The notes beneath the pieces were generated by a model. That model made no database searches and had not been told where the DNA came from. It saw only the letters and a program-made list of their open reading frames with translations. Position numbers and translations under genes: made by a program. Shown here piece by piece: positions 1 to 57,517 of a DNA stretch of 64,000 bases. How positions within the stretch are numbered: the stretch's first letter is position 1; every line of letters begins with the position of its first letter. Origin of the DNA: a bacterium (GTDB lineage Bacteria > UBA10199 > 2-02-FULL-44-16 > JAAZCA01); NCBI GenBank assembly GCA_021810905.1, contig JAJZQH010000014.1:12369-76368 (forward strand), given 5' to 3'.

Positions 1-248
1 GCCGTGATGATGATGATCTTGATGTTCGGGCGGCTCGCGCGAACTCGCCGCAGGACCTCCATGCCGTCCATGCCGGGCATCTTCAAGTCCAGCAGGATGA
101 GCTCGAACTGTTTTTCTCCGAGTTTCGCGAGCGCCTCTTCGCCGTCGGCCGCTGTTGCTATCTCAAACTCGAGCGGTTCCAGCGCCTGCGCGAGCGTCAA
201 TCGGACGTTCTTCTCGTCATCCACGATCAATATCGGTCTGGCTTTCAT
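1..248 (-). CDS. response regulator receiver (REC) domain protein, N-terminal part; gene continues past window start
   Basis: Minus-strand translation from ATG at 246-248 reads MKARPILIVDDEKNVRLTLAQALE...LKMPGMDGMEVLRRVR, a canonical REC domain. GGAGG ribosome-binding site sits a few nt upstream. Paired with the adjacent sensor kinase. Confidence 0.8.
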   Translation of the reverse strand, partial: MKARPILIVDDEKNVRLTLAQALEPLEFEIATAADGEEALAKLGEKQFELILLDLKMPGMDGMEVLRRVRASRPNIKIIIIT

Positions 249-2091
249 CTTCATCCTCCCTGTTTTGCCGCGCCTTCGGCAGAGTCAACGTGAACGTGCT
301 GCCCTTGCCGGGCATAGAGTCTACCCAGATCGTTCCCTTGTGAGCGCGGACGATCTCCCTGCAGATCGCGAGTCCCAGCCCGGTCCCGCCCACGCTCTTC
401 TCGCTCTTGAGCTGCACGAATTTCTCGAAGATGCGGCTCTGATACTCGGGCGGAATTCCTTCGCCATCGTCGGTGACCGACAGGTGCACCCACTGGCCTG
501 CAAGGCGGGCAGACACGGTGATGCTGCTGTCGGCGTAGCGAATCGCGTTGGTGATGAGGTTGGTCAGCACCCATGTGATCTTGTTGACGTCGGCGCGCAC
601 GTCGGGAATGCCGTCTGGCACGTTTGTCACAAGAGCGATCTTTTTTTCTTCTGCCCGGGCTTTGCAGATGTCGACCGCCTTGTCGGCAAGCATATTCGGC
701 GACACCTGATCGAAATCCATCTCCACTTTGCCCGATTCGATTCTGGACAGATCCAGCAGGTCGCCCACCAGGCTTCTGAGCCGCAGCACTTCCTCGTGCG
801 CGACTGCAAGGAGTTCTTTCTGCTTATCGTCCAATTTTTCGGCAGCGCCTTCCCGGAGAAGGTCGATGCTCATGCCCAGGCTGTGGAGCGGCGTCTTGAG
901 TTCGTGAGAAGCCGTCATCACGAACTCGCTCTTCATCCGGTCGAGTTCCTTGAGCCTCGTGACGTCGCGGAGCAACAGGACCACGCCCATCATTTCTCCG
1001 CCTTTGGAGACTACCGGAGTGATGCCGAACAGATAATGGCGGGCCGACTCGCCTTCGCCTATGGAGAGGATGCTGCTTCCCTCGTCGATCTTCGGCGGAC
1101 GGCCGGATTCGGCGGTCTGCTTGATCAGCTCGAAAAGCCGCTCGTCCTTGACGACTTCCAGGAAGTGTTTCCCCAGGGCTGCCTCGGAATCCACGCCCAG
1201 AATATGCCCGGCCTGGGGGTTGATGTTCGCGACGCGAAATCCGGCGTCGACGACCACCACGCCGTCATCTATGCTGCGCAGCACGGCGTCGCTCTTGTGC
1301 TTCTCGGCCACGATCTGCTCGACGTCGAGGCGGTGGTAGATGCCGAGCTTGCGGGCCATCGTGTTGAAACTTTCGGCCAGGCGGCCGAGTTCATCCGATC
1401 CGACGTCAGGCACCTGCACTTCGTAGTCGCCCTCTGCCAGCGCCCTTGTGCTCTCCATCATCCGGCGGATCGGCCGCACGAGGCGTTTGCTGAGCAACAG
1501 GCTGAAGAGCAGCCCGAGCCCAATGGCAGCTGCGCTCACGGCCGCGGTCGACCAGATGGCGGTACGGGCGACCGTCCGCGCGCGGCTGCTGGCGGCGAAC
1601 ATAGTGTCCTGATTGATCTCGCGGAGTCGCACCGCATTGTCGCGGACGTTTTTGAAGGAGGGAAATATCGTATCGTGGTAGAAATTGCCGGCCTGCTGCG
1701 AAGAAGAAACTCCCATTTCATGGAGTCTGGAGAAATTGAGCAGATAGGCCGAATAGTTCGTTTCGATGGAGTGGACGATTTTTTCTTCGCCGGGGATCGT
1801 GATATTGTCTTTGGCCCGGTTGAGCCACTGGAGGAAGAGGCTCTCGTTCTCGTGAAACTGGACGGCGCCTTTTTCGTCGTAGCCCAGCAACACAAGCAGA
1901 GTGGCGCTGTCCTGACGCTCTATCGCGTCGATCATGGATTCGGCGGCCAGGATGCTCTTGTAATTTTCACGCAGGATGGCGTCGCTGGCCTGGCCCAGGT
2001 GGACGAGGTTCAGCATTGCCCACGAAAGCACGATCAGCATCAGCGCCAGGGCGATTCCGTAGCCGATCAGGATTTTTTTGCGAAGCAACAT
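217..2091 (-). CDS. sensor histidine kinase: periplasmic sensor, HAMP, PAS-like, HisKA and HATPase_c domains
   Basis: 624-aa ORF. Two hydrophobic segments near the N-terminus flank a periplasmic region. H-box reads MTASHELKTPLHSL. C-terminal ATPase motifs read GGTGLGLAICREIVRAHKGTIWVDS. The 3-prime end overlaps the REC gene start by about 32 nt. Confidence 0.85.
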   Translation of the reverse strand: MLLRKKILIGYGIALALMLIVLSWAMLNLVHLGQASDAILRENYKSILAAESMIDAIERQDSATLLVLLGYDEKGAVQFHENESLFLQWLNRAKDNITIPGEEKIVHSIETNYSAYLLNFSRLHEMGVSSSQQAGNFYHDTIFPSFKNVRDNAVRLREINQDTMFAASSRARTVARTAIWSTAAVSAAAIGLGLLFSLLLSKRLVRPIRRMMESTRALAEGDYEVQVPDVGSDELGRLAESFNTMARKLGIYHRLDVEQIVAEKHKSDAVLRSIDDGVVVVDAGFRVANINPQAGHILGVDSEAALGKHFLEVVKDERLFELIKQTAESGRPPKIDEGSSILSIGEGESARHYLFGITPVVSKGGEMMGVVLLLRDVTRLKELDRMKSEFVMTASHELKTPLHSLGMSIDLLREGAAEKLDDKQKELLAVAHEEVLRLRSLVGDLLDLSRIESGKVEMDFDQVSPNMLADKAVDICKARAEEKKIALVTNVPDGIPDVRADVNKITWVLTNLITNAIRYADSSITVSARLAGQWVHLSVTDDGEGIPPEYQSRIFEKFVQLKSEKSVGGTGLGLAICREIVRAHKGTIWVDSMPGKGSTFTLTLPKARQNREDEDESQTDIDRG

Positions 2092-2121
2092 TGAGCATCC
2101 CGAAAGTTATCGAGCAGAATC

Positions 2122-3531
2122 TCACACCTTCAGCACCTTCATCATATTGGTTGCGCCAGCGGCGGTTGCGGTGCCGCATACGATCACGATGTGGTCGCCG
2201 GGCCTTGCAAGTTTTTCTTTCTTCATGGCCGCAACTCCCGCCTCGATCATCGTCTCGATGGAGCGCCATGGGCGTATCTTGAGCGGCGTGACGCCCCAGT
2301 AGAACGCGGTGCGCCTCGCGGCGTCGTCGCTGGCCGTGATCGCCACGATATCGACAGACGGCCGCTGCGAGCTCACCATGCGCGCGGAACTGCCGGTCAT
2401 CGTGAAGACGAGGATCGCCTTTGCCCGCGCCTCCTCGGCTGCAAAGCACGCGGCGCGCGCGGTGGCCATGGCGACCGTGTCGTCGTTTTCATCTGGAAGA
2501 TAGGCGCGCCGGGGGATGTAGATGCTCGACTCCGAGGCCTCAGCGATGCGCGCCATGGTCGCTACCACGTTCGTCGGGTCGCAGCCGACCGAAGTCTCCT
2601 CGGAGAGCATCACGGCATCTGTGCCCTCGAAGACCGCGTTCGATACGTCAGTGACTTCGGCGCGCGTGGGCCTCGATTCCTGCACCATGCTCTCCAGCAT
2701 CTGCGTGGCCACGATCACCGGTTTGCGCCAGGCCGCGCACGTGTCGATGATCCTGCGCTGCAGGATCGGCACCTGTTCGATCGGCGTCTCCACCCCGAGG
2801 TCACCGCGCGCCACCATCACGCCGTCCGCCACGGCCACAATCTCGCTCAAGCGCGCGACTGCGACGCCGCGTTCGATCTTCGCCACAATTGGGACGGTTC
2901 GCCCGGCGCTCTTCATTATTGAACGCACGCGGAGGATATCGGAAGGCGATTGCACAAAGGAGACGCCGATGGAATCCACGCCGTGTTCGAGTGCAAAGCG
3001 CAGGTCGCTCTCGTCTTTTTTTGTGATCGCGCTCGTGGAGAGCGCCACGTCCGGCAGATTGATCCCCTTGTGATCGTGCAGCGCGCCGCCGTCGGTCACC
3101 CTGGCCGTGATTTTCCCGCGCGATACGGACTTCACTTGCACGGAGATCTTGCCGTCGTCGATGAGGATGCGTTGCCCCGCTTTCACGTCGTCCGCGAGTT
3201 TCGGGTACGTGACGGGTATTTCATCCCTTTGTGCAGAACCATCCGGCGCGAACGTGACGAGATCGCCACGCTTTAAGTCCATAGGGGCGCCGCCGGGCAT
3301 CGCGCCCGTGCGGATCTTGGGGCCGCCCAGATCGGCGTGAATAGCTATCGGCCTGCCGGCCTTCTTCTCAGCCTCTCGGATATTGGCGATCGTCGCAGTA
3401 TGCTCGTCATATGAACCGTGCGAGAAATTGAGCCGCGCCGCGTCCATCCCAACGCGCATCATCTTTTCGAGCGTCTTGACGCCTGCTGAAGCCGGCCCGA
3501 TAGTCGCGAGGATTTTCGTATGTTTTTTCAT
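2122..3531 (-). CDS. pyk: pyruvate kinase
   Basis: MKKHTKILATIGPASAGVKTLEKMMRVGMDAARLNFSHGSYDEH... carries the pyruvate kinase barrel signature. Start set at MKKHTKIL rather than the upstream in-frame MIVD. Confidence 0.9.
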   Translation of the reverse strand: MKKHTKILATIGPASAGVKTLEKMMRVGMDAARLNFSHGSYDEHTATIANIREAEKKAGRPIAIHADLGGPKIRTGAMPGGAPMDLKRGDLVTFAPDGSAQRDEIPVTYPKLADDVKAGQRILIDDGKISVQVKSVSRGKITARVTDGGALHDHKGINLPDVALSTSAITKKDESDLRFALEHGVDSIGVSFVQSPSDILRVRSIMKSAGRTVPIVAKIERGVAVARLSEIVAVADGVMVARGDLGVETPIEQVPILQRRIIDTCAAWRKPVIVATQMLESMVQESRPTRAEVTDVSNAVFEGTDAVMLSEETSVGCDPTNVVATMARIAEASESSIYIPRRAYLPDENDDTVAMATARAACFAAEEARAKAILVFTMTGSSARMVSSQRPSVDIVAITASDDAARRTAFYWGVTPLKIRPWRSIETMIEAGVAAMKKEKLARPGDHIVIVCGTATAAGATNMMKVLKV

Positions 3532-3649
3532 GTGGGGAAAATATCGCATATCTACGATCATTGCATCGAAAAATTAGGAAGTCGCATAGGATAATTTGAT
3601 GCCATCAGTTCGCCGATCGTGTATATACGAGGCAACAAAGGGGGCCATT

Positions 3650-3874
3650 ATGATGAAAAACGTCGGCAATACGGATAAGTTGTTGCGCGTGATTCTCGGA
3701 CTTGCGATCTTCTATCTGGGCTACACATACAAGAGCTGGTGGGGTCTCGTGGGCTTCGCTCCGATCCTCACCGCTGTTTTCAGTTTCTGCCCAGCCTATG
3801 CGCTCTTCAAGATAAACACCTGCTGCAAGAAGGGCGAAGGCCAAGGAAAGGGCGGATGCTGCTGCGGAGGCTGA
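3650..3874 (+). CDS. DUF2892 (YgaP-like) small inner-membrane protein with Cys/Gly-rich C-terminal tail
   Basis: MMKNVGNTDKLLRVILGLAIFYLGYTY..WWGLVGFAPILTAVFSFCPAYALFKINTC matches the DUF2892 pattern. AAAGGGGG ribosome-binding site precedes ATG 3650. The tail reads CCKKGEGQGKGGCCCGG. Confidence 0.7.
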   Translation: MMKNVGNTDKLLRVILGLAIFYLGYTYKSWWGLVGFAPILTAVFSFCPAYALFKINTCCKKGEGQGKGGCCCGG

Positions 3875-3875
3875 T

Positions 3876-4772
3876 GTGGGTTTCAAGGCAGGGTACGTCG
3901 CGATAATCGGCAGGCCGAACGTGGGCAAGTCCACGCTGCTCAACGCCATCCTCGGCGAGCGGCTAGCCATAGTTACGCCCAAGCCGCAGACTACGCGTCA
4001 CCGCATCGTGGGGATTCTCAACGAGCCGGACGTGCAGGTCGTCTTTCTGGACACGCCCGGCTATCATCGTTCCGACAAACCGCTCAATCAGGCGATGAAC
4101 GAGATCGTAGATATGGTCATCCACGACGCGGACGTGGTCTGCCTCATGCTCGACGCATCGTCCAGCGACCTGCGCATCGAGCGCGGGCTCTTCGATCGCA
4201 TAGGCAGGGATCGCTGCATCCTCGTCGCCAACAAATCCGACCTCGTCGATCGCAAGAAGTTCGACGAGATCGCGCACCGCTTCCGCGACGATTGGAACGC
4301 GAACGAGATGGTCTTTCTCTCGGCGCTAAGGAACGAGGGCGTTCGCACGCTCATCGACGCGATCACCGCGCGCATGCCCGAGGGCGAGGCTTTTTTCCCT
4401 GACGACATCTACACGAGCCATCCCGTGCGCTTCATAGCGGCCGAACTCATCCGCGAGCAGCTCTTTTTGCAGATGCACCAGGAGATTCCTTATTCCACTG
4501 CGGTGGAGATAGAGGAATTCAAGGACGCCACCGAGAACGATCCGATAACGCGCATCAAAGCGTCGATCGTCGTTGAGAAGGAGTCGCAGAAGGCGATGGT
4601 GATAGGAAAGGGCGGCACGCGCATCCGCGAGATCGGCACCCGCGCGCGCAAGGCGATCGAGGAGCTGGTGGGCGGCAAGGTCTTCCTCGACCTCAACGTG
4701 AGGGTGGAGAAGGACTGGACCAAAGACCCCGACGCCATCCGCCGCCTGGGTTACTCATCACAGATGGAGTGA
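3876..4772 (+). CDS. era: GTPase Era
   Basis: G1 motif IIGRPNVGKSTLLN, G3 motif DTPG, G4 motif NKSD, and a C-terminal KH domain. Start codon abuts the previous stop. Confidence 0.92.
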   Translation: MGFKAGYVAIIGRPNVGKSTLLNAILGERLAIVTPKPQTTRHRIVGILNEPDVQVVFLDTPGYHRSDKPLNQAMNEIVDMVIHDADVVCLMLDASSSDLRIERGLFDRIGRDRCILVANKSDLVDRKKFDEIAHRFRDDWNANEMVFLSALRNEGVRTLIDAITARMPEGEAFFPDDIYTSHPVRFIAAELIREQLFLQMHQEIPYSTAVEIEEFKDATENDPITRIKASIVVEKESQKAMVIGKGGTRIREIGTRARKAIEELVGGKVFLDLNVRVEKDWTKDPDAIRRLGYSSQME

Positions 4773-4800
4773 CCCCGTATGATCGATGTCGCAGAGCGCC

Positions 4801-5883
4801 TCAAGGTTTTTCCCGCGGCTCCAAAATCGTAACGCCCGCGCGGATATTTTCCTGCGATTTGAGGTAGGGGAGCAGGGGTTCTTCGATCACCGCGTTTGCG
4901 CGCGATGAGGCGTGCCGAAGCATCGGCTCGCCGCGCGAGCCGTCCTTTTGTACTGGTACGAGCAGCAGGCCCATGTGCGCCACCATCACGCCGAACTTCT
5001 TTGCAGCCTCTTCTTTCCGGAGAAAGACCGCAATCGAGACCTCCGGCAACATGTCGATGAGCGAGGAGTTGAGTTCGTCGGCTTCGGGACAGTCCCCGAA
5101 GAAGGCGGACAGCGGGAGGAAATCGAGCACGACCTGCTGCGGGCCGCCAAGCCCCAGTTCCGCGAGTTCCATTCGCGCCGTGCTCTTTTCGCACTGAGAG
5201 AGATTTTCTTTATTGTCGATCCAACCGGCCCTGTCTATCGGCATGTCCATGGTGCCTGCCAGCTCGCCCCCGATTCCAACCGTGATATCGCGCAGAAAAC
5301 CGTTCCCCGAGTTTTCATCTATCCAGTCGGCCTCCACAAAGTGGTTGCGAAGCCCGTAGGTGCCGACTCCGCCGTGGTAGCGGATGCTCTGGAGCGTGCC
5401 CAGGAACGTGTCGAATGAGGTGGCATGCGACATGGCGAGCACCTCCTCCACGTACGTCATGCAGTCGAGCGCGTCGAAGCGGAACATGGGGTCCTGGTCC
5501 ACAAGCCCCGCGTTTCCTTCTCCCAGCGGATCGAGCTTATAAGGTGTGCCGAGGAAGCGGCGGCTGACGCATTCGAGCCTTTGCGCGAGCGGCATACTGC
5601 GCAACTGCGAGAGGATCGCCTGAAAAGTATTGTCCTCAGGGACAAAGGCGTTCTGGCCGGGCATCGGTGCGCACGGGTCGGGCGGCAGGGCCGCAAAGGA
5701 AGTCGCATTTTGAGGAGGCAGCGGTTGCTCGCATACTGGAAGGGGCTCAATCGGCACATATATAATAGATGAAGGATCGGCCACACAGACCGGCTCTTCC
5801 TCGGGTGTCATGCAAGCAGCGGGGGACGGCGAAGAGACGCAATAATTCCTGACTTCAGCGCTTAATTGTTCGCGGTGCGACAT
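4801..5883 (-). CDS. hypothetical protein with Pro/Cys-rich N-terminus
   Basis: 360-aa ORF with coding-like composition. Contains RFLGTPYKLDPLGEG, reminiscent of DUF1460 amidase-like proteins. Function not established. Confidence 0.55.
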   Translation of the reverse strand: MSHREQLSAEVRNYCVSSPSPAACMTPEEEPVCVADPSSIIYVPIEPLPVCEQPLPPQNATSFAALPPDPCAPMPGQNAFVPEDNTFQAILSQLRSMPLAQRLECVSRRFLGTPYKLDPLGEGNAGLVDQDPMFRFDALDCMTYVEEVLAMSHATSFDTFLGTLQSIRYHGGVGTYGLRNHFVEADWIDENSGNGFLRDITVGIGGELAGTMDMPIDRAGWIDNKENLSQCEKSTARMELAELGLGGPQQVVLDFLPLSAFFGDCPEADELNSSLIDMLPEVSIAVFLRKEEAAKKFGVMVAHMGLLLVPVQKDGSRGEPMLRHASSRANAVIEEPLLPYLKSQENIRAGVTILEPREKP

Positions 5884-6038
5884 GAAATGACCTCTATTAG
5901 TTATCGGCAGTCAGCGGAAAAAGTTGCAATGAAAATTTTTTATCATGAAAACCGTTGAATTATCAGGCAGATGATCCTGTCGCATTCGTGAGATCGTCGA
6001 TTGCAGAATCCATTGGCAGATGCTATCTGCGGTGCCCT

Positions 6039-7205
6039 ATGAAGAATACGCGAAATCGATTTGTCTTCAGCGCGGCATGGACCGTCGCTGGGATCATGGT
6101 TCTGGCCCTGTCTTTTACCGCCGCTTCCGCCTCTGCGCGTGACAAAGGTGGTTCCGGCGACGTGATAAATTATTCTTGGGCTTCCAGCAGGATCGAAGGC
6201 GAGCTCTGGGGGCTGGCACAGGGAAACCTGGATAACGACGGCTCCGCTGATACTGTGCTGCTCGAGCGCAAGCGCGTTCGCATCGGGAAAATCGGGGAGA
6301 AGGGCTTTGAGGAGCGATTCTCGTGCGGATGGAAAGAGGACGCGGCCGCGGCGCGCGCGTATCTGATCGATGTCGATGGTGATGGAAAAGACGAGATCGC
6401 AATATCCGCGGTAGAGGAGGGGATGCCCTCGTCGCTCGTGCTTGCGGTCGACGCGGACGCAAAGAAATGCAGCGAGCTCGTCTCGCGCGCGAGATGGTCG
6501 ATTCGCGCTGTGGCGCTGCCTGCTGAAGGCGCGGACACGGGGCCTGCCAGGCGCGTACTCGCCGGCCAGGCGTGGAGTTCGCAGAAATATTTCAGCGGCC
6601 CTATCGTGGAACTCGCGCTTAAGAAGGACAAGCTGGTCAGGCAGCGTGATATCGAGCTGCCGCACTTTACCGATCTTTATCAGTTCACGATCCTGCCGCC
6701 GGAGAACGGCGCTGAGCGGGTGCTCAGGCTCGCCGGCTATTCGGCAATGGAGCTTAGGGAGCACAAGGGCGGCGGCAAGTGGCGCAAGATCTGGCGCTCC
6801 GGCGACAAGCTCGGCGGGGCCGCGAATCTCCTTCCAGCCGTGCAGCGGCCCGCGCTCGATGAGGTGTCGAGCGACTACGCATATTTTGACCTGCCGCCGC
6901 TGACCCTCAAACAGGCCGATGGAGTGCACGCTCTGGCGGTCAAATACGACCTGCCGCTGCGCAACGTGATCGGAAGGACGCCGTACGCCAGGGGTGCAGA
7001 GACGGTGATGTTCAAACCAGATCCAGCGCTCACGTACATAGAAGAGAAGCGGACCCAGGACCTGCCAGGCCCGATCATGGATTACTTCATCGCAGCGCCG
7101 GCCGACTCCGCAGGCAAGGTCAGGCTTTATGTACTGGTACAGCAGGACGCAGGAGCCTTCATCAACTCCACCGAGGCATCGATACTCGCGTTCGATCTGA
7201 ACTAG
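6039..7205 (+). CDS. secreted hypothetical protein with FG-GAP/VCBS-like Asp-rich repeats
   Basis: Start set at MKNTRNRFVFSAAWTVAGIMVLALSFTAASASA, a signal peptide. Motifs DNDGSADTV and DVDGDGKDEIA. Stop TAG at 7203-7205. Confidence 0.65.
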   Translation: MKNTRNRFVFSAAWTVAGIMVLALSFTAASASARDKGGSGDVINYSWASSRIEGELWGLAQGNLDNDGSADTVLLERKRVRIGKIGEKGFEERFSCGWKEDAAAARAYLIDVDGDGKDEIAISAVEEGMPSSLVLAVDADAKKCSELVSRARWSIRAVALPAEGADTGPARRVLAGQAWSSQKYFSGPIVELALKKDKLVRQRDIELPHFTDLYQFTILPPENGAERVLRLAGYSAMELREHKGGGKWRKIWRSGDKLGGAANLLPAVQRPALDEVSSDYAYFDLPPLTLKQADGVHALAVKYDLPLRNVIGRTPYARGAETVMFKPDPALTYIEEKRTQDLPGPIMDYFIAAPADSAGKVRLYVLVQQDAGAFINSTEASILAFDLN

Positions 7206-7434
7206 GCACAACACATGAGGATCATGGTTTCGGGTCCTGTCGCCGGCCACCCCCATTTGTGACCTTCCGATAGGATTGTTGTACAATGCTGAAATGCCGC
7301 AGCGTGGGTTCCGCGCTGCGGCCGGCATCGCCGCATCTATCACAACTTTATGCGGGCATCGAAGGCGGCTGCTGGCGTCAAATGGGGGTCCCCCGTCCAG
7401 CGCCACCCAAAACCATGATCCTCATGTGTTGTGA
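7206..7434. repeat. 229-nt long-hairpin element with 24-25 nt terminal inverted repeats (MITE-like or structured RNA)
   Basis: GCACAACACATGAGGATCATGGTTT at 7206-7230 is the reverse complement of 7410-7434 (24 of 25 match). Interior is further self-complementary (CCACCCCCATTTG with CAAATGGGGG). Starts on the first base after the stop of the upstream gene. Confidence 0.6.
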
Positions 7435-7505
7435 CAGTTGCACTGATGAATTCCCTAGGTTGCCGAAACGTTATGAACGGAGTCAACCTTACGTTTGGCA
7501 CTTGA

Positions 7506-7774
7506 GCGGTGCAGCTATTCGGCCTGGAGTTTATTGGCGGGCATCGCGTAGAGAGCCGTCTTTGTCGGCGAGCGGTTGCCGGTCGTGCCAGAGTAGAAGC
7601 CCGGGTTGCACGACGCCGAGGCTGTTCGAGCCTGCGAAAGCGGTTTTTTTTAGAGGTAAAGACTTCTTTTGCTTTCGCAGGCGAGTTCCGAGGCGAGGCA
7701 ACCCGAGTCCGTTACAAAGACGTGCGAACGGAGCGCCGCCCGACGATAAACTCCAGGCCGAATAGCTGCACCGC
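7506..7774. repeat. 269-nt element closed by 24-nt perfect inverted repeats, with internal 12-bp hairpin
   Basis: GCGGTGCAGCTATTCGGCCTGGAG at 7506-7529 is the reverse complement of 7751-7774. Internal hairpin GCCTGCGAAAGC with a 29-nt U-rich loop and GCTTTCGCAGGC at 7630-7682. Lies in the convergent gap about 50 nt from the gltB stop. Confidence 0.6.
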
Positions 7775-7822
7775 CTTGGTGCCAATCTGCGTGTTGACTT
7801 CGTTCATAACGTCTCGCCGCGC

Positions 7823-10800
7823 TTACCGCGGAGTCACTAGGATGAAACGGGTGGAGGTTTCCTGCCAGGTGTCCAGCAGGCTGCGGGCTTGCGGGCTCTT
7901 TGTATCATTATAATAGTCAGTCAGGATCTCCCTGAGCGCATCTGTCTTGCCCGGTTCGTCCGCGAGAGATATTGCCGTCACGTCGGAATGCAGGCGCTCG
8001 CGCGCGCTGCCGTCCGGATCAAAGAGATATATCTCTCCGCCGGTCATGCCTGAGCCGACGCAGGGTCCGCATCTGCCGAGCACCACGCCAGTGCCGCCTG
8101 TCATGTATTCGAACGCGTATTTGCCGACCCCCTCGCAGATCAGCAGCGCGCCAGAGTTGCGCACTCCAAAGCGCTGGCCAGCCCTGCCGGCGATATAGAG
8201 ACGACCGCCTGTTGCACCGTATGCAGCGGAATTGCCGACGAGGTGTGGAGCGCAATCGCCTCCAACCCCGGCAGGCGGCGCAATCACGACGCTCGCATTG
8301 CCGCTCATCGCCTCTGCGACGCCGTCGTTTGCAAAGCCGTCGAGCCTTAGGGTCATGCCGTCCGTCGCGGCAAAGCCGAATCCATGTCCGGAATAGCCCT
8401 TGGCGTGGATCTCAATTCGTTCCGCGGTTTCTGCCACCCTCTCCCTTGATGGGAGAGGGAAGGGTGAGGGTGCATCCGATCTCAGCCTGGCTATTTCTCC
8501 TGCAAGCGTTGCGCCCACGGCGTGGTCGCCGTTGCAAAGCGATATGCGTATCGGCGCATTCCCGGCGCGTCCGTCGAACACGGCGCGGGCGGAAGAGAGG
8601 ATCTCGGCGTTCCTTGCGGATACGGCACGAAATTCCGTTTGAACACATCGTGCAGTGCGCGCCTCGCCATGGAAGTACATGAGCATATCCGTGAAATCGA
8701 GACGATCCCAGCGCGCCATACCTGATACGCGAGGTTTCAAGAGATCCACGCGGCCCACGAGTTCGCGCGGGTGTGTGAGGCCCAACGTAGCGAGTATGTT
8801 CCTTAAGTCGTCGCCCATGCATTCGAGATAGCGGATCACGCCGCTTTTTGCTTCATTATATCGATCCATCGCTGCTGCTTCATCGGGATGCACTCCCTTG
8901 AGATAGCCGCGCATGAAGCGTTTGTTCTGTTTTTCCTCGTCCTGCGTCGCGATGCCCACCGGGCAGTTGCCCTTGTTGCACCCACGGCAGAATATGCAGC
9001 ACTCGGCCACGAGGAGCGGCGTGCCTATGGAGACTTCATCGGCGCCGAGCGCGATGATCTTTGCCGCATCCATGCCGCACTTGATGCCGCCGTCCGCGCG
9101 CACGCGCACGCGCGAGCGGATTCCGTTTACGACAAGATATTGATGCAGCTCGGAGACGCCGCGTTCGATCGGCAGTCCCGCGTGCGAGATGCTGCCGGAG
9201 CTCGCGGCGCCGGTGCCGCCCTCAAAGCCGCTCACCACGATCACGTCGGCGCCTGCCTTTGCAACTCCAACGCCGATCGTCCCGAGATTTGTGACCGATG
9301 GAACCTTGACCGACACGATTGCTTCAGGATGCAGCTCGCGGAGATTGGTGATCAGCTGTGCAAGATCCTCGATGCTGTAGATGTCATGATGCGGGGGAGG
9401 GCTGATGAGATCCACGCCAGGCTTCGTCTTTCTGATGCGCGCGATTTCCTCGGTGACTTTTCTGCCGGGCAGGTGGCCGCCCTCGCCGGGCTTGGCGCCC
9501 TGGCCGATCTTTATCTCGATCTCGTCCGCGTGTACGAGATACGTGGCGTCCACGCCGAACCTGCCGGACGCGATCTGGCGGATCCTGCTGCGATCGGAGG
9601 CCCACTCGCCGTCCTGGTTTCGACGCTCGTCTTCTCCGCCCTCGCCGGAGCATGAGGCTGCATCGAAGTGGTTGAAGGCCGACGCTATGGCGCGATGTGC
9701 CGTCGAGTTGAGCGCACCGTGCGACATGGCTGCCCCGCGTATCGTACTCCTTACGATCTCTCTTGTGTCCGCGACTTTTTCGAGATGCGGCGGCATGTCG
9801 CTTTTTTTGAATTCGAGCATGTCGCGCAGATATACGGGAGGTGTATCTTCAAGCAGTTTCACGAACCGGTCGTAGTCGCCGTTTGAATTTCCGTTGCGCG
9901 CAACGAGCTGGAGCGCGTCTGTCACTTCCTTGCGATAGACCGTCATGTTTTTGTTTCGCGCTATGGCATTCGAACCGACGGCCGAGCGTGCGACTGTGTC
10001 CTCGTAGATGTCGTCCATGGTGATGCCGCCGAGCCGCGAGACCGTATCCGGGATGTAGTATTCGACGACATCCGAAGAGATGCCGATCGCCTCGAAGAGC
10101 GCCGAGCCGCGATAACCGGTGAGAGTCGTGATGCCCATCTTCGACATGATGCGCCTCAGCGTGTGCACAACCGACTTCACAACGTTGGCGTACGCTTCGT
10201 CAGGTGGGATATCGGAAAAAGTCGTGGCCAGGTGCAGCATGGCGTACGGGTTCACGGCCGTGGCGCCGTAGGAGAGCAGGATCGCACAATCGTGGCCTTC
10301 GTGCGTGCTGCCCGTCTCGGCAATGATGCTGGCAAAGCGCCGGAGGCCCCTAGCGGCGAGCGCCTGATGGATGGAGCTCACAACGAGCAGCATGGGAACC
10401 GGCGGCCTTTCGCCGCGCGTGGCGGCGTAATCCGTAACAACGAGTATCGACGCCTCCTTGGAGCGTATCACGCGCACGGCTTCGTCGGTGAGGTCGTGTA
10501 TCCTTCTCACGATTTCGCGCGGGCTGCCTTTGTCGACGAAAGTCGCGTCGATCTCGTGCGCCTTTAGTTCAGAGATATCTGATGAGAGGATCGCCTGCAT
10601 CTGATCGTTCGTCAGTATCGGGTGATCCAACTTATACTGCGGCCACGACATGTAATCGCTGCGCCTGCTGATGCGCGGCGAGCGGCCCAGGTACACCGTA
10701 GTATCTATGGCGCCGCCCTCGCGCAGCGGATCGATGGGCGGATTTGTGACGACAGCAACGATCTGGTGAAGGAAGCTGTAGAGCCTGGAATGGTTTTCGC

Positions 10801-12259
10801 TGAAGATCGCGAGCGGGCTGTCGTTGCCCATGCCGAGAATCGGCTCCTTGCCGCCCTTGATCATCTCGTGCAGTTGCTCGATGCGCTCCTTTGTCCAGCC
10901 GAACGCGTTGAGCGCGCGGATATCGAGCGGCTCGCTCTGCCTGCCTCTGCCGATGGGGAGCAGATCCACCGTGGCCAGGTTTTCGAAGTTGAGCCCGGTG
11001 CGATCTACGATCCATGCGGTCGCAGACTCAGGAGATATGAACTCGCCGTTCTCCACGTCGGCGATAAGCATTGCACCCGGCTCGAGCTGGCCATCGCACT
11101 CGATCTCCGAGGCTTCGAGCGGAACCGCACCGGCCTCGCTCGATACGATCACGCGATCGGATTTAGTCCTCACGTATCGTAGCGGCCGCAGTCCCATGCG
11201 GTCCATCGCCGCCGCGAGTATTTTTCCATCCGTGCCGAGGATCGCTATCGGTCCCTCCCACGCGCCCATGGTTCCGAGCGCGCGGCGATTCGCCTCGAAA
11301 AATCTGCGTTCGCGCTCGCCGAGCAGGTCTTCGTCCCAGGCGGGGGAGATCATCCTGCGCAGCGCCTCGTGGATGCCGGTGACGCCGTTGGCCACCATCA
11401 TCTCGGCCACGCGGTCGAGCTGCGCGGAATCGCTTCCGTGGTTCATGAGCGTGTTGCCGATGGCGAGCGCGCTGTCCGCGTCCTTGATGGCGCGGCAGTT
11501 TGCGGTGATCGTGTTGATCTCGCCGTTGTGCGCGATGTGCCGAAACGGCTGCACCAGATTCCAGTTGGAGAACGTGTTGGTAGAGAAGCGCCTGTGCGCC
11601 ACTATAACCCTCGTCTTGAACTCCGGATCGCGGAAGTCCTCATAGAATGACGCGAGTTGATCGGACTTAGCGAGCGCCTTGTAAACGGTTGTATGCGGAG
11701 CGAGCGAGACCACGTTGACTATGCCGGCGAGCTCGCGCTCTATGAGGACCTTCGCGTGGTGGAGCGCTTCAAAGAGCTGCGCCTCCCGCCTGTGGCCCTT
11801 GGCTGCGAGGAGCTGGAATATGATGGGTGCGTCTTCCCGCGCACGAGCGCCCAGTGCAGACGGATCAACCGGAGTCTTGCGCCAACCGAGCGGGGCGAGA
11901 CCCTCCCTGCGTATGATGAGGTCCATTTCGCGCGTGAGCTGCGGGATATTGCGCTCGCCGTGGAGGAAAAAGACCGTGCCCACGATGAGAGGTTCCTTTG
12001 CGCTCTGGAGGGAGCGTCCGTGCGCGATGAATCGCTCGAAGAAGGACCTCTCCGGCCGGAGGATCAGCCCCGCGCCGTCGCCCGTGTCTCCGAGCGAGCC
12101 GCCCCGGTGCTCCATGCGGATGAGCCCGTCCAGGGCCTGCCTGAGCAGTTCGTGGGAGGCCGGCGCAGCCAGATCGGCGATAGCGAGGATCGCGCATCCC
12201 CCGCGGCCGGGGTCGCCCTTGATTTCCTCGATGCGTTTTTTGTATTTTTTCGTATTCAT
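7823..12259 (-). CDS. gltB: glutamate synthase large subunit (single chain, about 1478 aa)
   Basis: N-terminal Ntn amidotransferase region (GDPGRGGCAILAIAD), central FMN/Fe-S domain, C-terminal GXGXG domain. Start set at MNTKKYKK (ATG 12257-12259) with an AAGGA ribosome-binding site. Confidence 0.9.
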   Translation of the reverse strand: MNTKKYKKRIEEIKGDPGRGGCAILAIADLAAPASHELLRQALDGLIRMEHRGGSLGDTGDGAGLILRPERSFFERFIAHGRSLQSAKEPLIVGTVFFLHGERNIPQLTREMDLIIRREGLAPLGWRKTPVDPSALGARAREDAPIIFQLLAAKGHRREAQLFEALHHAKVLIERELAGIVNVVSLAPHTTVYKALAKSDQLASFYEDFRDPEFKTRVIVAHRRFSTNTFSNWNLVQPFRHIAHNGEINTITANCRAIKDADSALAIGNTLMNHGSDSAQLDRVAEMMVANGVTGIHEALRRMISPAWDEDLLGERERRFFEANRRALGTMGAWEGPIAILGTDGKILAAAMDRMGLRPLRYVRTKSDRVIVSSEAGAVPLEASEIECDGQLEPGAMLIADVENGEFISPESATAWIVDRTGLNFENLATVDLLPIGRGRQSEPLDIRALNAFGWTKERIEQLHEMIKGGKEPILGMGNDSPLAIFSENHSRLYSFLHQIVAVVTNPPIDPLREGGAIDTTVYLGRSPRISRRSDYMSWPQYKLDHPILTNDQMQAILSSDISELKAHEIDATFVDKGSPREIVRRIHDLTDEAVRVIRSKEASILVVTDYAATRGERPPVPMLLVVSSIHQALAARGLRRFASIIAETGSTHEGHDCAILLSYGATAVNPYAMLHLATTFSDIPPDEAYANVVKSVVHTLRRIMSKMGITTLTGYRGSALFEAIGISSDVVEYYIPDTVSRLGGITMDDIYEDTVARSAVGSNAIARNKNMTVYRKEVTDALQLVARNGNSNGDYDRFVKLLEDTPPVYLRDMLEFKKSDMPPHLEKVADTREIVRSTIRGAAMSHGALNSTAHRAIASAFNHFDAASCSGEGGEDERRNQDGEWASDRSRIRQIASGRFGVDATYLVHADEIEIKIGQGAKPGEGGHLPGRKVTEEIARIRKTKPGVDLISPPPHHDIYSIEDLAQLITNLRELHPEAIVSVKVPSVTNLGTIGVGVAKAGADVIVVSGFEGGTGAASSGSISHAGLPIERGVSELHQYLVVNGIRSRVRVRADGGIKCGMDAAKIIALGADEVSIGTPLLVAECCIFCRGCNKGNCPVGIATQDEEKQNKRFMRGYLKGVHPDEAAAMDRYNEAKSGVIRYLECMGDDLRNILATLGLTHPRELVGRVDLLKPRVSGMARWDRLDFTDMLMYFHGEARTARCVQTEFRAVSARNAEILSSARAVFDGRAGNAPIRISLCNGDHAVGATLAGEIARLRSDAPSPFPLPSRERVAETAERIEIHAKGYSGHGFGFAATDGMTLRLDGFANDGVAEAMSGNASVVIAPPAGVGGDCAPHLVGNSAAYGATGGRLYIAGRAGQRFGVRNSGALLICEGVGKYAFEYMTGGTGVVLGRCGPCVGSGMTGGEIYLFDPDGSARERLHSDVTAISLADEPGKTDALREILTDYYNDTKSPQARSLLDTWQETSTRFILVTPR
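8435..8482 (-). repeat. palindromic repeat copy embedded in-frame in gltB, encoding SDAPSPFPLPSRERVAE
   Basis: Reverse complement reads GATCGGATGCACCCTCACCCTTCCCTCTCCCATCAAGGGAGAGGGTGGCAGAAACC. It is near-identical to the intergenic copy at 43171-43229. Contains the hairpin CCCTCTCCC..GGGAGAGGG. Confidence 0.7.
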
Positions 12260-12573
12260 GGTTCCTTGCGCAGTAGAAGCAGCTTTTCTCAGTGACGGGA
12301 GGATTGATGTCAAGACGAAATGCTTGCGAAGCAATCTTCTTTATGTCATATGCGCCAGACGTTTTGCCCAGTGACAACTTGATTGCGGGCTGTTCAAAAT
12401 GACCAGATGCAAGGCTCCCGATGGAGCCTGACTGAGATTCACTTGAAAGAGGGTTTCAGAAATAGTGCGAGACGAGGCAGGCTGAGGAGGCCGGCCGAGT
12501 CGTACTGTAAGTACGTCGCAGGCCGTGCCGACGAAGACAACGAAGTATCGCGCTATTTATGAAACCCGACATT

Positions 12574-12647
12574 GGCGGGATAGCTCAGATGGTGAGAGCG
12601 AGGGATTCATAACCCCTAGGTCGACGGTTCGATCCCGTCTCCCGCCA
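12574..12647 (+). tRNA. tRNA with CAU anticodon (elongator tRNA-Met or lysidine tRNA-Ile2)
   Basis: Cloverleaf read by hand. Acceptor stem GGCGGGA pairs with TCCCGCC. D-arm GCTC..GAGC. Anticodon loop TTCATAA. T-arm GACGG TTCGATC CCGTC. A G1-C72 pair argues against initiator tRNA. Confidence 0.8.
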
Positions 12648-12688
12648 CAAAATATTAAGGCGCCGTCAAGGCGCCTTAATATTTTGCG
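12648..12688 (+). terminator. rho-independent terminator
   Basis: Perfect 16-bp stem AAAATATTAAGGCGCC, loop GTCA, then GGCGCCTTAATATTTT followed by TTTTG. Immediately after the tRNA. Confidence 0.75.
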
Positions 12689-20600: not shown

Positions 20601-20681
20601 AAAACGTCGTTCGTCGTTAGTCGTTCGTGAATCGTAAAGACCTCAGTCACTTGGGCGGTTTTACGATCGACGAACGACGAA
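20601..20681. repeat. TAGT-arm hairpin element, copy A (5-prime leader of yfgM-like gene)
   Basis: AAAACGTCGTTCGTCGTTAGTCGTTCGTGAATCGTAAAGACCTCAGTCACTTGGGCGGTTTTACGATCGACGAACGACGA. Arms and core are self-complementary. Homologous copies at 36618-36728 and 39975-40050. Confidence 0.65.
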
Positions 20682-24687: not shown

Positions 24688-24704
24688 AATCTTGTGACAA
24701 TCAA

Positions 24705-24794
24705 CCCCTCCCCTTTGTAAGGGGAGGATGGGAGAGGTAGACCGTGGATACAACCACGATCTACCTCCCCTCGCCCCTCCTTACAAAGGAGGGG
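24705..24794. repeat. REP-like palindromic element: two inverted units of CCCCTCC-TTTGTAA-GGAGGGG..GGGAGGTAGAYC
   Basis: Unit at 24705-24743, palindromic spacer GTGGATACAACCAC, inverted unit at 24758-24794. The same unit recurs at 57518-57555. Confidence 0.7.
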
Positions 24795-24817
24795 AATAAA
24801 TCGTCACTTATCACTGC

Positions 24818-26320: not shown

Positions 26321-26340
26321 ACTTAGTGATAGTATGGTGG

Positions 26341-26470
26341 TACGTTAGTACGTTAGTACGTTAGTACTTTCGTACGTTCGTTAAGCGTGTGAGCTGTCAG
26401 GTTTAGAACACCATGTTCGATCACGATCCTTTAACTAACGTACCAACGTACTAACGTACCAACGTACGAA
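26341..26470. repeat. inverted-repeat element with TACGTTAG tandem arms (divergent member of the TAGT-arm family)
   Basis: Left arm is TACGTTAG repeated about 3.5 times. Right arm is the reverse-complement pattern CTAACGTACCAACGTACTAACGTACCAACGTACG. About 70-nt core. Lies directly upstream of guaA. Confidence 0.55.
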
Positions 26471-26479
26471 GTTGATACC

Positions 26480-28021
<1,542 letters not shown>

Positions 28022-36618: not shown

Positions 36619-36728
36619 AAACCGTCGTTCGTCGTTAGTCGTTCGTCGATCGTGACGGCCTCAAGAACATGGACGTTTTTACGATCAACGCACCACGAAT
36701 TACGAACGACTAACGACTAACGACGAAA
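36618..36728. repeat. TAGT-arm hairpin element, copy B (fills the gap from the dnaE stop to the ribosome-binding site of the next gene)
   Basis: AAAACCGTCGTTCGTCGTTAGTCGTTCGTCGATCGTGACGGCCTCAAGAAC..GTTTTTACGATCAACG..CGAACGACTAACGACTAACGACGAAAC. Arms are reverse complements. Aligns with copy A. Confidence 0.65.
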
Positions 36729-39407: not shown

Positions 39408-39986
39408 ATGGAATTGACCGCGGCAAATATCCTAACCCTCTCGCGTCTGGTGCTGGCGCCGGTCTTTGTAGTCTTATTCGTGATCGGTCAATACGGCTGG
39501 GCGCTGGCGGTATTTATTTTCGCAGGCTTCACCGATCTCATAGACGGTACTGTTGCGCGCATGCTGAGGCAGCGCTCGCAGGGCGGCGCGCTGCTCGATC
39601 CAATCGCCGACAAGCTGCTGGTTCAGAGCTGCTTCATATCGCTTGCCTGGATCGGCGCGCTGCCCTGGTGGTTCGCCGCTCTCGCCCTTGCCCGCGACGT
39701 CATGATTGTAGGCGGGATATTCTACCTTGAACACGTGCGAGCGCCGCTCCCGTACAGGCCTGCGGTGATTTCGAAGTTCGCGACACTCTTCCAGATTGGT
39801 ACCGCCGTGCTGGGACTTGTGACGATCTGGAAGCCGGAGCTCATGATCTCGGGAGTGAGGGCAGATGAATTGCTCGTCTGGACGATCTACGCGACCGCGG
39901 CCCTGATAGTCGCCAGCGGCGCAAGATACGTATCCATGGGATTGCAGATACTCAGGCAGCATCGCCTTGGAAGCCGTAAATCGTAA
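39408..39986 (+). CDS. pgsA: CDP-diacylglycerol--glycerol-3-phosphate 3-phosphatidyltransferase
   Basis: CDP-alcohol phosphatidyltransferase motif DLIDGTVAR...GALLDPIADK with NILTLSRLVLAP at the start. An alternative start 27 nt upstream would overlap the previous gene. Confidence 0.85.
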   Translation: MELTAANILTLSRLVLAPVFVVLFVIGQYGWALAVFIFAGFTDLIDGTVARMLRQRSQGGALLDPIADKLLVQSCFISLAWIGALPWWFAALALARDVMIVGGIFYLEHVRAPLPYRPAVISKFATLFQIGTAVLGLVTIWKPELMISGVRADELLVWTIYATAALIVASGARYVSMGLQILRQHRLGSRKS

Positions 39987-40050
39987 ATCGTTAAAGACCT
40001 CCAGTTCCTGGGCGGTGTTACGAACCACGATCCACGAAACACGAACCGCG
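39975..40050. repeat. TAGT-arm hairpin element, copy C (degenerate; 5-prime leader of the metallophosphoesterase gene)
   Basis: CGTAAATCGTAAATCGTTAAAGACCTCCAGTTCCTGGGCGGTGTTACGAACCACGATCCACGAAACACGAACC. Shares the core ATCGT(T)AAAGACCTC..CTGGGCGGT(G/T)TTACGA with copies A and B. Confidence 0.5.
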
Positions 40051-43023: not shown

Positions 43024-43137
43024 TTCAAGGGGAATGATTGACCTTGCGGTATTGGTGCTGTAAAAAAGCGATCCGTGTTGAACAGCCGCCGCAATAACGC
43101 AGAGAGTGGGCTATGCGAAAGACGATAATATTGAAAG

Positions 43138-43262
43138 CTCCCCGCGGCAAGCCGCGGGGAATCATCGGCAACATTTCCGATCACCCTCACCCTTCCCTCT
43201 CCCCTCAAGGGAGAGGGTGGCGGAAACCCCGCAGCAAGCTGCGGGGTTTCATCGGATTGGCA
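43138..43262. repeat. cluster of three REP-like hairpins
   Basis: Hairpin a: CCCCGCGG-CAAG-CCGCGGGG at 43140-43159. Hairpin b: 43171-43229, the near-identical copy of the gltB insert, with CCCTCTCCC-CTCAA-GGGAGAGGG. Hairpin c: AAACCCCGCAGC-AA-GCTGCGGGGTTT at 43224-43249. Hairpins a and c are followed by the related tails AATCATCGGCAA and TCATCGGATTGGCAA. Confidence 0.7.
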
Positions 43263-43271
43263 ATCATCTTT

Positions 43272-44939
43272 ATGCTGTCCTCCATCGGCGGGACGGCGCG
43301 GGCTGCGCTCAATCCGTCTTCGCCGTTCCAGGTCTTCTGGGACGACGCGCCGATGACGATTTCCGCTGGAACCCCATTCCATCTCAACGTCACGATCAGG
43401 GCGCCCGAGGGGTATTATCTGTATGCGGATGAGACTGACCTCGATTTTGTGAGCCTGGAAGGCCTGTTTGTAAAAGATATTCGATATCCGCGCCCCATTC
43501 AGTACACCGACCCTTATTTAGGCAAGACAGTTGGTATTTTCAAAGGCGATACGGTCATATCGATAGAAGGCATGGCGCCCGCGGGTCTCGAACCTGGCAG
43601 AAAGGAACTCACCGCTTTATTGCATTTCAGAGGGTGTTCTCCTTCGCTCTGTTACAGGCCGGAAGAGGATGAAATCGCCTTCATACTGGTCGTGGAGCCA
43701 GCGCCGCAGGTGGAGCGAGTCGAACCAAAGAATCCGGACGTGCATGCGCAGGAGGAGTCAACGCCAATGCCCAGGAGCCTGCCGGAGCAGCTGGGGCTCA
43801 AGCACCTGCTGCAGGTTCAGGATTTCTCGACTCTGCTGGGGCGCGGAACTCTCTTTGCGCTGCTCGTCGTCTTCCTTGCGGGAGTGCTGACTTCGCTCAC
43901 GCCGTGCGTCTGGCCCGTGATACCCGTGGTCCTCCTCTATGTAGGTGTGCACCCGCACAAGCGCTTTCTGGAAAACTTCCTCCTCTCGGCCGTGATGGTC
44001 CTGGGGATAGTGGTCACCTATGCCGCACTGGGCATCGGCGTTGCGGCCTTTGGAAAAAACCTGGGTTTCCTCTATCAGCAGCGGTGGTTTTTGGCGCTGG
44101 TCGTGCTCTTCTTCATTGCGATGAGCCTCTCGATGTTCGGGGCCTTTGACATCCGCATGCCGCGCCGCCTTCATGCGCGGCTCCATGCGCTCGGGGGCGA
44201 GGGATACTGGGGCGCCTTCCTGGCTGGCATGGGGCTGGGGCTCGTCGCCTCGCCTTGTTCGGGCCCGGTGCTCGCGGCGCTTTTGGGTTACGTGGCCCTG
44301 CAGGGTAGCTACCTCGTAGGTTTCGGCCTGCTCATAGTCTACGGCCTCGGGATGGGCCTGCTCATGATGCTGCTCGGCGCATGTTACGGAGAGCTTGCCG
44401 GCAAACTCAAAGGGGGCGCGTGGATGCTCTGGATAAGGCGCGCCCTTGGAATCGTATTGCTGTTCCCGGCGGCGTACTACATGGGCGTGCTCTTCAACTG
44501 GAACCCGCAGCACAAGGCCCCTGCGAACGCCGCGCGAATAGAGTGGGTGACCAGTGAAACCGACGCCCTGCGCGCTGCAGCCCAGACGGGTAAATCCGTC
44601 ATGATCGATTTTACGGCCGCGTGGTGTCCGCCGTGCGGAGCGCTCGAACGCAATTTCTTTTCGAGAAACGACGTCATCGGGTTGGGCTTCGAGCTCATCC
44701 CGCTCAGGGTGGACGCAACGTCCGAGACAAAGGACGTGCGGCAGCTCATCGCCAGATACCGCGTCGCAGGATGGCCGACCGTTCTCTTCGTGGGGCCGGA
44801 CGGAACCGTGTACGAGGACCTGAGGGTGAGCGATTACGACCCTCCGGCAATCGAGCGCAACATGCGCGAAGCGATAAAGAGGGCCCATGCTTCTGACATG
44901 CCCGGAATACGCTCCGAACGAGCGACGGAGAAGCGATGA
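43272..44939 (+). CDS. dsbD: thiol:disulfide interchange protein DsbD-like (CcdA-type membrane core plus C-terminal thioredoxin)
   Basis: Transmembrane Cys pair LTPCVWPVIPV and SPCSGPVLAALL. C-terminal thioredoxin FTAAWCPPCGALE. Start uncertain (ATG 43272 or upstream TTG); the long upstream in-frame extension covers the repeat cluster. Confidence 0.75.
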   Translation: MLSSIGGTARAALNPSSPFQVFWDDAPMTISAGTPFHLNVTIRAPEGYYLYADETDLDFVSLEGLFVKDIRYPRPIQYTDPYLGKTVGIFKGDTVISIEGMAPAGLEPGRKELTALLHFRGCSPSLCYRPEEDEIAFILVVEPAPQVERVEPKNPDVHAQEESTPMPRSLPEQLGLKHLLQVQDFSTLLGRGTLFALLVVFLAGVLTSLTPCVWPVIPVVLLYVGVHPHKRFLENFLLSAVMVLGIVVTYAALGIGVAAFGKNLGFLYQQRWFLALVVLFFIAMSLSMFGAFDIRMPRRLHARLHALGGEGYWGAFLAGMGLGLVASPCSGPVLAALLGYVALQGSYLVGFGLLIVYGLGMGLLMMLLGACYGELAGKLKGGAWMLWIRRALGIVLLFPAAYYMGVLFNWNPQHKAPANAARIEWVTSETDALRAAAQTGKSVMIDFTAAWCPPCGALERNFFSRNDVIGLGFELIPLRVDATSETKDVRQLIARYRVAGWPTVLFVGPDGTVYEDLRVSDYDPPAIERNMREAIKRAHASDMPGIRSERATEKR

Positions 44940-57511: not shown

Positions 57512-57517
57512 ATATTA

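Follow-up and report, generated by a model that had tools for sequence, protein, structure and literature searches.

A rare palindromic element with a conserved centre and locus-specific arms at the edge of a relocated gltB block in an uncultured bacterial lineage

The stretch of bacterial DNA that we analysed (64,000 nucleotides of contig JAJZQH010000014.1, hereafter the window) contains, next to the 3'-end of gltB, a non-coding palindrome of composite build, which we call element B (7464-7816, 353 nt). Its innermost 195 nt (the core, 7544-7738) recur at other loci, whereas its arms are specific to the locus. Our best reading is that element B is a rare, lineage-specific palindrome of the MITE/REPIN-like kind, with a conserved centre and locally generated arms, and we see about an even chance that this composite structure, lying at a gene-relocation junction, is selfish palindromic DNA. 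As far as we have searched, the family of the core is very small, dispersed and limited in the collections covered to this uncultured lineage.

Element B lies in a convergent gap of 617 bp (7206-7822), the largest intergenic gap of the window, between an ORF with FG-GAP repeats (plus strand, stop at 7205) and gltB (minus strand, stop at 7823). The first-pass annotation of this DNA, made from the letters alone, had placed two unrelated palindromes in a convergent gap of this length; the gap and its two palindromes are there, and at the sequence level the two are indeed unrelated. The other one, element A, occupies 235 nt (7203-7437) and has 29-nt arms (7207-7235 and 7405-7433) that end 30 nt upstream of element B.

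Regarding the arms of element B, a perfectly paired 24-mer, GCGGTGCAGCTATTCGGCCTGGAG, had been noticed at 7506-7529 (plus) and 7751-7774 (minus). This pairing is real, with 0 mismatches and no other site in the window, and 24-mer arm matches appeared in 0 of 100 dinucleotide shuffles. However, the full length of the arms had been missed: the 24-mers are part of a 29-nt perfect run (7506-7534 and 7746-7774), and the whole arm pair is 84 nt long with 81% complementarity (7464-7547 and 7733-7816). From the outside in, an outer stem is followed by an internal loop (7x7), a stem of 7 bp, a second loop (4x4), the long inner arm and the core. The outer stem (7464-7487 with 7793-7816) has 24 bp with two transition mismatches, and its right half ends 6 nt short of the gltB stop codon (7823-7825, minus strand). 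The inner arm, with the 24-mers and the perfect run, extends over 7495-7547 on the left and 7733-7785 on the right. The halves of the 7x7 loop, CTTACGT (7488-7494) and TCTGCGT (7786-7792), are identical in four of their seven bases when read as direct repeats, with transitions at the other three, a resemblance that could be either a decayed target duplication or chance.

The region 7460-7820 is predicted to fold into a single rod, with RNA minimum free energies of -209.7 kcal/mol for the plus strand and -198.6 kcal/mol for the minus strand (z -14.0 and -16.6), and with values of -123.2 and -115.5 under DNA parameters (z about -14). The consensus fold of the core is also a rod, composed of a helix CGUCUUUGU / ACAAAGACG, a helix GGUUGCC / GGCAACC, a side hairpin and a central hairpin of 12-14 bp. 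The side hairpin (GUCGUGC...GCACGAC, 7582-7614, plus strand) carries in its loop, at about 7589-7607, the most variable block between copies. The central hairpin (7627-7685, plus strand) had also been described correctly before, as a perfect 12-bp stem (7630-7641 and 7671-7682) closing a 29-nt U-rich loop, GGTTTTTTTTAGAGGTAAAGACTTCTTTT.

The core is the only part of element B that is shared with L006, a 174-kb contig of the same ENA metagenome. There it occupies 10133-10327, with 88% identity over 195 nt and no gaps. L006 has a GC content of 0.574, compared with 0.575 in the window, the tetranucleotide correlation between them is 0.983, and two further lineage-specific repeat families are common to both. 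Therefore, on the shared metagenome, GC content, tetranucleotides and repeat families, we consider L006 to be a second locus of the same genome. The neighbours of the core are different there, namely an unannotated 226-aa gene and an HD-domain gene on the minus strand, whose stop codon marks the end of the right arm. The L006 copy folds into one rod as well (-216.6 kcal/mol, z -16) and has outer (10061-10089 / 10371-10399) and inner (10097-10129 / 10330-10362) inverted repeats. Nevertheless, the arms of the two loci are not alignable (p = 0.24 and 0.49), so homology between them was rejected, although long inverted repeats exist at both. Upstream of the L006 copy there is another, unrelated long palindrome with perfect 32-nt arms.

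A third copy came from a protein search. The query, P0014, is a spurious 159-aa ORF that crosses the element (7286-7765), and it returned P0016, which is the spurious ORF of the L006 copy, and P0015, carried by a 231-kb contig, through which the third copy is visible at the peptide level only. P0015 and L006 have in common the core and the 33-nt inner arms (peptides LTHGLxEFLLGD and SKNSCxPCV), and their homology stops exactly at the ends of the inner arms, at L006 10097 and 10362. P0015 appears to have an outer inverted repeat of its own, since the codon-compatibility run of its flanks is 8, longer than in 40 of 40 shuffles; the power of this measure is limited, because in the positive control L006 the run was 11 and one of 40 shuffles also reached 11. 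This run-based version was used because a nucleotide-set version had no discriminating power and a codon version over the whole overlap was too diluted. Across the copies, therefore, the core is found in all three, the inner arms in two (L006 and P0015) and the outer arms in none in common. The first-pass annotation had put the emphasis on the arms and on the U-rich loop; it is the centre that is conserved, with the U-rich loop as one of its most variable parts. In these three places gene callers had annotated ORFs of 159-183 aa over the palindromes (window 7286-7765, L006 10001-10552, and P0015 elsewhere), which are spurious proteins in public databases, yet they serve as handles for locating copies of the element.

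Outside these copies the element is rare. Against 1.84 billion representative proteins, a full profile search with HMMER gave no copy beyond P0015 and P0016, and a concatenated query of the other frames added none. At the nucleotide level, the exact 24-mer arm is absent from the GTDB species genomes and from IMG/VR, the L006 arm is absent from IMG/VR, the core blocks are absent from IMG/VR and the JGI metagenomes, and the back-translated core peptides had no match in the JGI metagenomes. One weak GTDB match to those peptides, L009, was discarded as chance because nhmmer finds nothing in it. Neither blastn against plasmids and phages nor nhmmer with the core against all the sequence examined, in search of diverged copies, yielded a match. 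A BLASTN search for further copies of the arms had been proposed as a check; in the collections scanned there is no exact copy of the 24-mer arm, and what recurs, at L006, is the core. In total, 1.84 billion representative proteins and three DNA collections gave three copies, one of them as a translated ORF only, two being loci of the same metagenome/MAG and the third lying elsewhere. The copy number is probably underestimated, since detection through ORFs sees one frame and palindromes break assemblies. As for a source of mobility, no transposase was found by Pfam in the 40 kb of window ORFs covered (1-12334 and 12706-39986) or among the precomputed Pfam labels of the L006 genes.

Between the two DNA copies of the core, all 57 pairs are held (57/57): three have changes in both partners and no pair has a change in a single partner, and the other 17 differences are in unpaired positions, mostly in two loops. 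The divergence is about 21% in unpaired and about 5% in paired positions, the latter all compensated, as counted on two sequences. The stems are conserved, and this contrast is clear even though a shuffle control of stem conservation, which is weak with only two sequences, gave 67/500. In the central hairpin, two adjacent pairs are compensated between the window and L006 (CT/AG to TC/GA), and its loop differs at 9 of 29 positions; the U8 run of this loop reads GGTTTTCAAG in L006. Furthermore, in both places the predicted fold of the plus strand is 11-22 kcal/mol better than that of the minus strand and has more G-U pairs (9 against 6, and 9 against 3), an asymmetry in the modelled folds which hints at an RNA or at a strand-specific single-stranded form.

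There is no coding signal in the core. The 23 nucleotide changes yield 12-15 amino acid changes per 64-65 codons in all six frames, so a coding core was rejected. A small ORF with a TTG start in the loop has no conservation between the window and L006, and the ORFs crossing element B belong to no Pfam family. A guide-like relation between loop and arms is disfavoured too, since core and flanks share no complementary stretch of at least 9 nt, and 7-mer matches are at chance level.

The pattern of conserved stems and variable loops, together with the strand asymmetry, keeps a structured RNA as a live rival, even if we consider it unlikely. The core would then be a small family made up of structured non-coding RNA genes, with at least two paralogues per genome, transcribed from the plus strand in antisense to the 3'-ends of gltB and the HD-domain gene. 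Its closing helix would be needed only as a helix, for instance as an RNase III substrate or as a stabiliser, and its sequence would be free to drift or to be replaced. The non-coding nature of the core and its orientation relative to the adjacent gene, which is the same at both loci, agree with this. However, the searches for RNA signatures point the other way. At the gathering threshold, only a tRNA (12574-12647) passes Rfam in the whole window, and by E-value (E < 10) the region 7100-7900 gives nothing credible, only chance-level matches to eukaryotic snoRNAs and lncRNAs. The L006 copy matches only a long-hairpin look-alike, MIR918, with 53.6 bits against a threshold of 268. Element B matches none of the known Rfam families (6S, tmRNA, RNase P, SRP, ribozymes, riboswitches), which agrees with the earlier by-eye failure to see RNase P, tmRNA or SRP motifs; the housekeeping RNA that the first pass had considered as an outcome of an Rfam search did not appear. 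In 7100-7900 there are no terminator-like sites, and the single, weak promoter-like site lies inside element A, with none upstream of element B. Nor does element B resemble an intrinsic terminator, which would have a short G+C-rich stem and a U-tract kept from copy to copy: the U-run that follows the GAAA mini-hairpin in the window has no conserved counterpart in L006. The earlier suggestion of a pair of structured non-coding RNAs therefore has on its side the conserved or compensated core stems, and against it the absence of an Rfam family and of a promoter or terminator signature. Moreover, the abrupt loss of homology at the inverted-repeat ends between P0015 and L006 is the signature of a DNA breakpoint and not of drift, and a single template switch can compensate changes in a palindrome without any selection on RNA (PMC8794818).

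Immediately 3' of the window's tRNA we observed, at 12648-12686, a perfect 17-bp hairpin followed by TTTTG, and in the relative L004 the same place has a canonical terminator with a GC stem and a T-run, so this lineage uses ordinary intrinsic terminators.

The history of the gap could be reconstructed with four relatives (L004, L005, L010 and L011), as had been recommended for the region 3' of gltB. In all four, the FG-GAP-repeat gene is followed directly by the sequence that in the window lies beyond gltB, with no gltB between. A tRNA comes next in L004, L005 and L011; in L010 there is only the spacer motif, the contig ending 77 nt past the stop. The junction of the relatives reads ...gatctc(gaaccc)TTGCACTGA...CTTTGTGTCATA, whereas that of the window reads ...gatctgaac, the 235 nt of element A, TTGCACTGAtga, element B with the gltB block, and CTTCTTTATGTCATA. 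In the alignment, the row of L010 is tttgatctcTTGCACTGAaaataaCTTTGTGTCATA, that of L004 is tttgatctcgaacccTTGCACTGAtgaggCTTTTGTGTCATA, and that of the window is ttcgatctgaac followed by 7203-7437, TTGCACTGAtga, 7450-12334 and CTTCTTTATGTCATA.

This alignment shows that element A was truly inserted, within the final codons of the FG-GAP-repeat gene, in agreement with the synteny of L004 and L010. Just after it, at 7438-7449 (plus strand), we found the relic of the ancestral end of this gene, TTGCACTGATGA, which encodes Leu-His-stop-stop and matches L004 (6584-6595) over all 12 nt and L010 (5767-5775) over 9 nt, the 9-mer TTGCACTGA being present in both relatives. The C-termini of the homologues, FDLLH and FDLEPLH, fit the displaced Leu-His-stop-stop as well. 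Element A now supplies the TAG stop of the gene and has pushed the old end downstream. Its insertion site had no earlier hairpin, and neither of its arms is native to this site; therefore arms can travel with an element. We also compared the elements A of the window and L006 loci, and homology between them was rejected because the local alignment scores were within the shuffle range.

From 7450 on, the gap arrived with gltB. The block 7450-12334 (4.9 kb) consists of 14 nt, element B, 6 nt, gltB (minus strand, called gene 7823-12259) and 75 nt upstream of it, and none of the four relatives has it at this position, from which we conclude that it was relocated, with element B at its extreme end. 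Between the left junction of the block and element B there are thus 14 nt, and between element B and the gltB stop 6 nt. The earlier notion of a hotspot for element insertion is supported by this comparison, since element A is a demonstrable insertion and the core of element B is a dispersed repeat.

Two other observations concern the block and its surroundings. Between the TTGACAACTTGA box and the tRNA gene, a stretch of about 200 nt (12372-12573, equivalent to L004 6628-6829) is about 78% conserved with L004 and has no Rfam hit. L011, in which about 45 nt separate the box and the tRNA, lacks this stretch, which may represent a leader RNA or a further inserted element. Inside gltB (minus strand), 8423-8472 matches 43182-43231 in inverted orientation over 50 nt with 94% identity, the latter within a 608-aa ORF (43113-44939, plus strand), and this match is probably a protein motif shared by paralogous domains.

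The proximity of element B to the junction raises the question of whether its arms are simply a scar of the gltB relocation, that is, a repair by-product without function or mobility of its own. A hairpin-prone core at a double-strand break would have folded back and primed synthesis, or the replication machinery would have switched template, and the flank proximal to gltB would have been copied in inverted orientation. The distances of 14 nt to the block junction and 6 nt to the gltB stop agree with this, as does the right arm at L006, which also ends at a stop codon. In addition, there are documented cases of inverted repeats that were expanded and homogenised by template switching (PMC13100816, PMC8794818), and a 29-nt perfect run inside arms of 81% complementarity suggests a recent homogenisation. 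We nevertheless regard the scar as rather improbable: the core must still have reached at least three loci, arms can travel, as those of element A did, and arms of 84 nt are far longer than typical template-switch tracts. Furthermore, the 49 nt downstream of gltB in L004 are unlike the right arm of element B, although that flank may simply have diverged.

We therefore return to mobile, selfish palindromic DNA as the preferred reading, to which we are led by the abrupt, inverted-repeat-bounded ends of homology, the unrelated loci, the insertion of element A next door and the position at a rearrangement junction. That element B itself is mobile, how its arms are made and which strand or enzyme is involved are points that we infer. 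The innermost 195 bp (7544-7738) would be a hairpin-shaped repeat unit that is copied to unrelated intergenic sites, either alone or with arm layers acquired previously, and at each site it would become wrapped in site-specific inverted-repeat arms. These arms most probably originate in one of two ways: by nesting, in which the unit lands in the loop of a hairpin already present, or by a local extension and homogenisation of the palindrome through replication template switching. Both would result in a layered structure with a conserved centre and unconserved shells. The target of the constraint would be the folded single strand of the core, as a substrate for a trans-acting copying enzyme. In the window, the unit would have come to lie at the extreme end of the relocated gltB block, beside the independent insertion A that truncates the FG-GAP-repeat gene.

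The internal loops between layers fit nesting, and it is known that insertion sequences target REP palindromes (PMC1525189). However, nesting into hairpins cannot be the whole story, since the site of element A had no pre-existing hairpin. A local extension limited by selection on the neighbouring genes fits the near-perfect 29-nt run and the arms that end at stop codons, and template switching is reported to create, homogenise and expand inverted repeats and to give compensatory changes in one step (PMC8794818, PMC13100816). Against a mobile element it can be said that three copies are known, one of them by its ORF only, that the sequences compared show no empty site of element B itself, that there is no clear target-site duplication, and that the divergence pattern of loops and stems is also expected of a functional RNA under long-term selection.

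The Correia elements of Neisseria and the palindromic elements of Rickettsia are examples of bacterial MITEs. Like the MITEs in general (reviewed in PMC3184786), element B is small (below about 600 bp), non-coding and folds as a long hairpin; likewise, MITEs have dispersed copies in or beside gene ends, are mobilised in trans, and can enter the 3'-end of an ORF and provide a new stop, as element A did here. Nevertheless, MITEs keep their terminal inverted repeats and vary inside, whereas the family of element B keeps the centre and has locus-specific termini: there are no conserved terminal inverted repeats between the window and L006, and L006 and P0015 share only the 33-nt inner arms. We found no direct repeat at the outer ends of elements A or B, and the loop halves of L006 match poorly. 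Only three copies are detectable, and no parent insertion sequence is known for element B. Because of the failed test for conserved termini and the lack of an evident target duplication, we have not filed it in a known family.

The REP, BIME and REPIN sequences are similar in that they are extragenic palindromes placed right after stop codons, often between convergent genes (PMC1525189, PMC2817692, PMC3333891), in that palindromes serve as landing sites (IS1397, ISPpu9/10), which gives nested palindromes within palindromes, and in that the substrate recognised is a single-strand hairpin. However, REPs are 20-40 nt long and present in hundreds of copies, whereas here the core is 195 nt, the whole unit 195-353 nt, and there are three copies. 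Moreover, no RAYT or IS200/605-type gene was found in the sequence examined, and the outer hairpins of element B are unique and not members of a REP family. The quasipalindromes created by template switching share with element B the locus-specific, near-perfect arms, the adjacent compensated changes made in one step, and the outward growth of a palindrome from a hairpin nucleus (PMC8794818, PMC13100816, PMC7202029); however, the documented tracts are of a few to tens of bases, unlike the layered 84-nt arms, and the process does not explain how the core reached several loci. Finally, 6S RNA and the msr-msd (a1/a2) of retrons are also rods of about 200 nt closed by inverted repeats of variable sequence. 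In contrast to 6S RNA, element B has no match to that Rfam family and no central open bubble. As for retrons, no reverse transcriptase gene adjoins element B, whose neighbours are the FG-GAP-repeat gene and gltB, and the L006 copy lies between the unannotated 226-aa gene and the HD-domain gene.

Two bolder ideas, which we take together as quite improbable, are that element B is a self-extending hairpin transposon that adds an arm layer derived from the locus at every move, or that the core represents a new class of rod-shaped RNA. In the first, a structure-specific mechanism would move whole DNA hairpins, for example with fold-back or template-switch synthesis upon insertion, and the shells of the palindrome would then record its past locations.

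The 617-bp gap is 100% identical in DAHVYM010000003.1 of MAG GCA_027327785.1 (L002), a contig that contains the window, in the ENA assembly (L001/L007) and in L008, a contig of 1.3 kb obtained from another sample. We consider it extremely improbable that a short-read metagenome assembler made a chimeric or fold-back join at a repeat here. It is true that the DNA belongs to a metagenome-assembled genome, that L004 stops 49 nt beyond gltB and that palindromes do disturb assemblies, as the Logan contig L003 demonstrates by breaking inside the left arm of element A. However, the gap is the same in three assemblies including the separate sample, the imperfect arms contain transitions and internal loops and so differ from fold-back artefacts, and the junctions match the relatives base for base on both sides.

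Long hairpins that abut stop codons and are unique or of low copy number are common in this lineage, which appears to be unusually rich in long intergenic palindromes. Others of 140-270 nt and unique sequence are at 9707-9965, 11616-11755 and 15745-15986 of L006 and at 8067-8333 and 16915-17108 of L005, some of them with nested arm pairs, and in both the window and L005 the spacer between the OmpA-like gene and the IMPDH gene contains long hairpins, whose sequences differ. A REP-like family, CCCCTCCCCTTTGTAAGGGGAGG..., is found 2-19 nt past the stop codons of the OmpA-like gene, yajC and the RF-1 gene (window 24694-24807 and 57513-57553, L006 2983-3020, L005 7632-7669), and is thus present even in the distant relative L005. 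At the 5' side of genes, two hairpins of the window (20605-20679 and 36623-36727) have the arm motif CGTCGTTCGTCGTTAGTCGTTCGT, with 81% identity over 81 nt and heptamer-like units CGTTAGT/CGTTCGT. A ribosome-binding site (AAGGAGG) and a start codon come directly after each of them, which makes them look like a family of 5'-UTR hairpins; there is a third partial match at 39981-40038, and none of them has an Rfam hit. A palindrome of GTACGTTA octamer repeats (26330-26481) ends at the ATG of guaA (26480), and a copy of this repeat on L006 (2056-2160) is 90-95% identical.

In practical terms, such hairpins break short-read assemblies and yield spurious ORF calls like P0014-P0016. As a rule, it is the conserved ends that identify intergenic palindromic repeats; element B is the opposite case, with a constrained centre in locus-specific arms. 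If this is confirmed on complete genomes, it would mean that long palindromes of bacteria can arise layer by layer around a mobile hairpin nucleus, whether through nesting or through growth by template switching. It would also mean that such elements mark, and perhaps promote, the relocation of genes and the remodelling of their 3'-ends, as in this gap, with a gltB block that was relocated and an FG-GAP-repeat gene whose final codons are gone.
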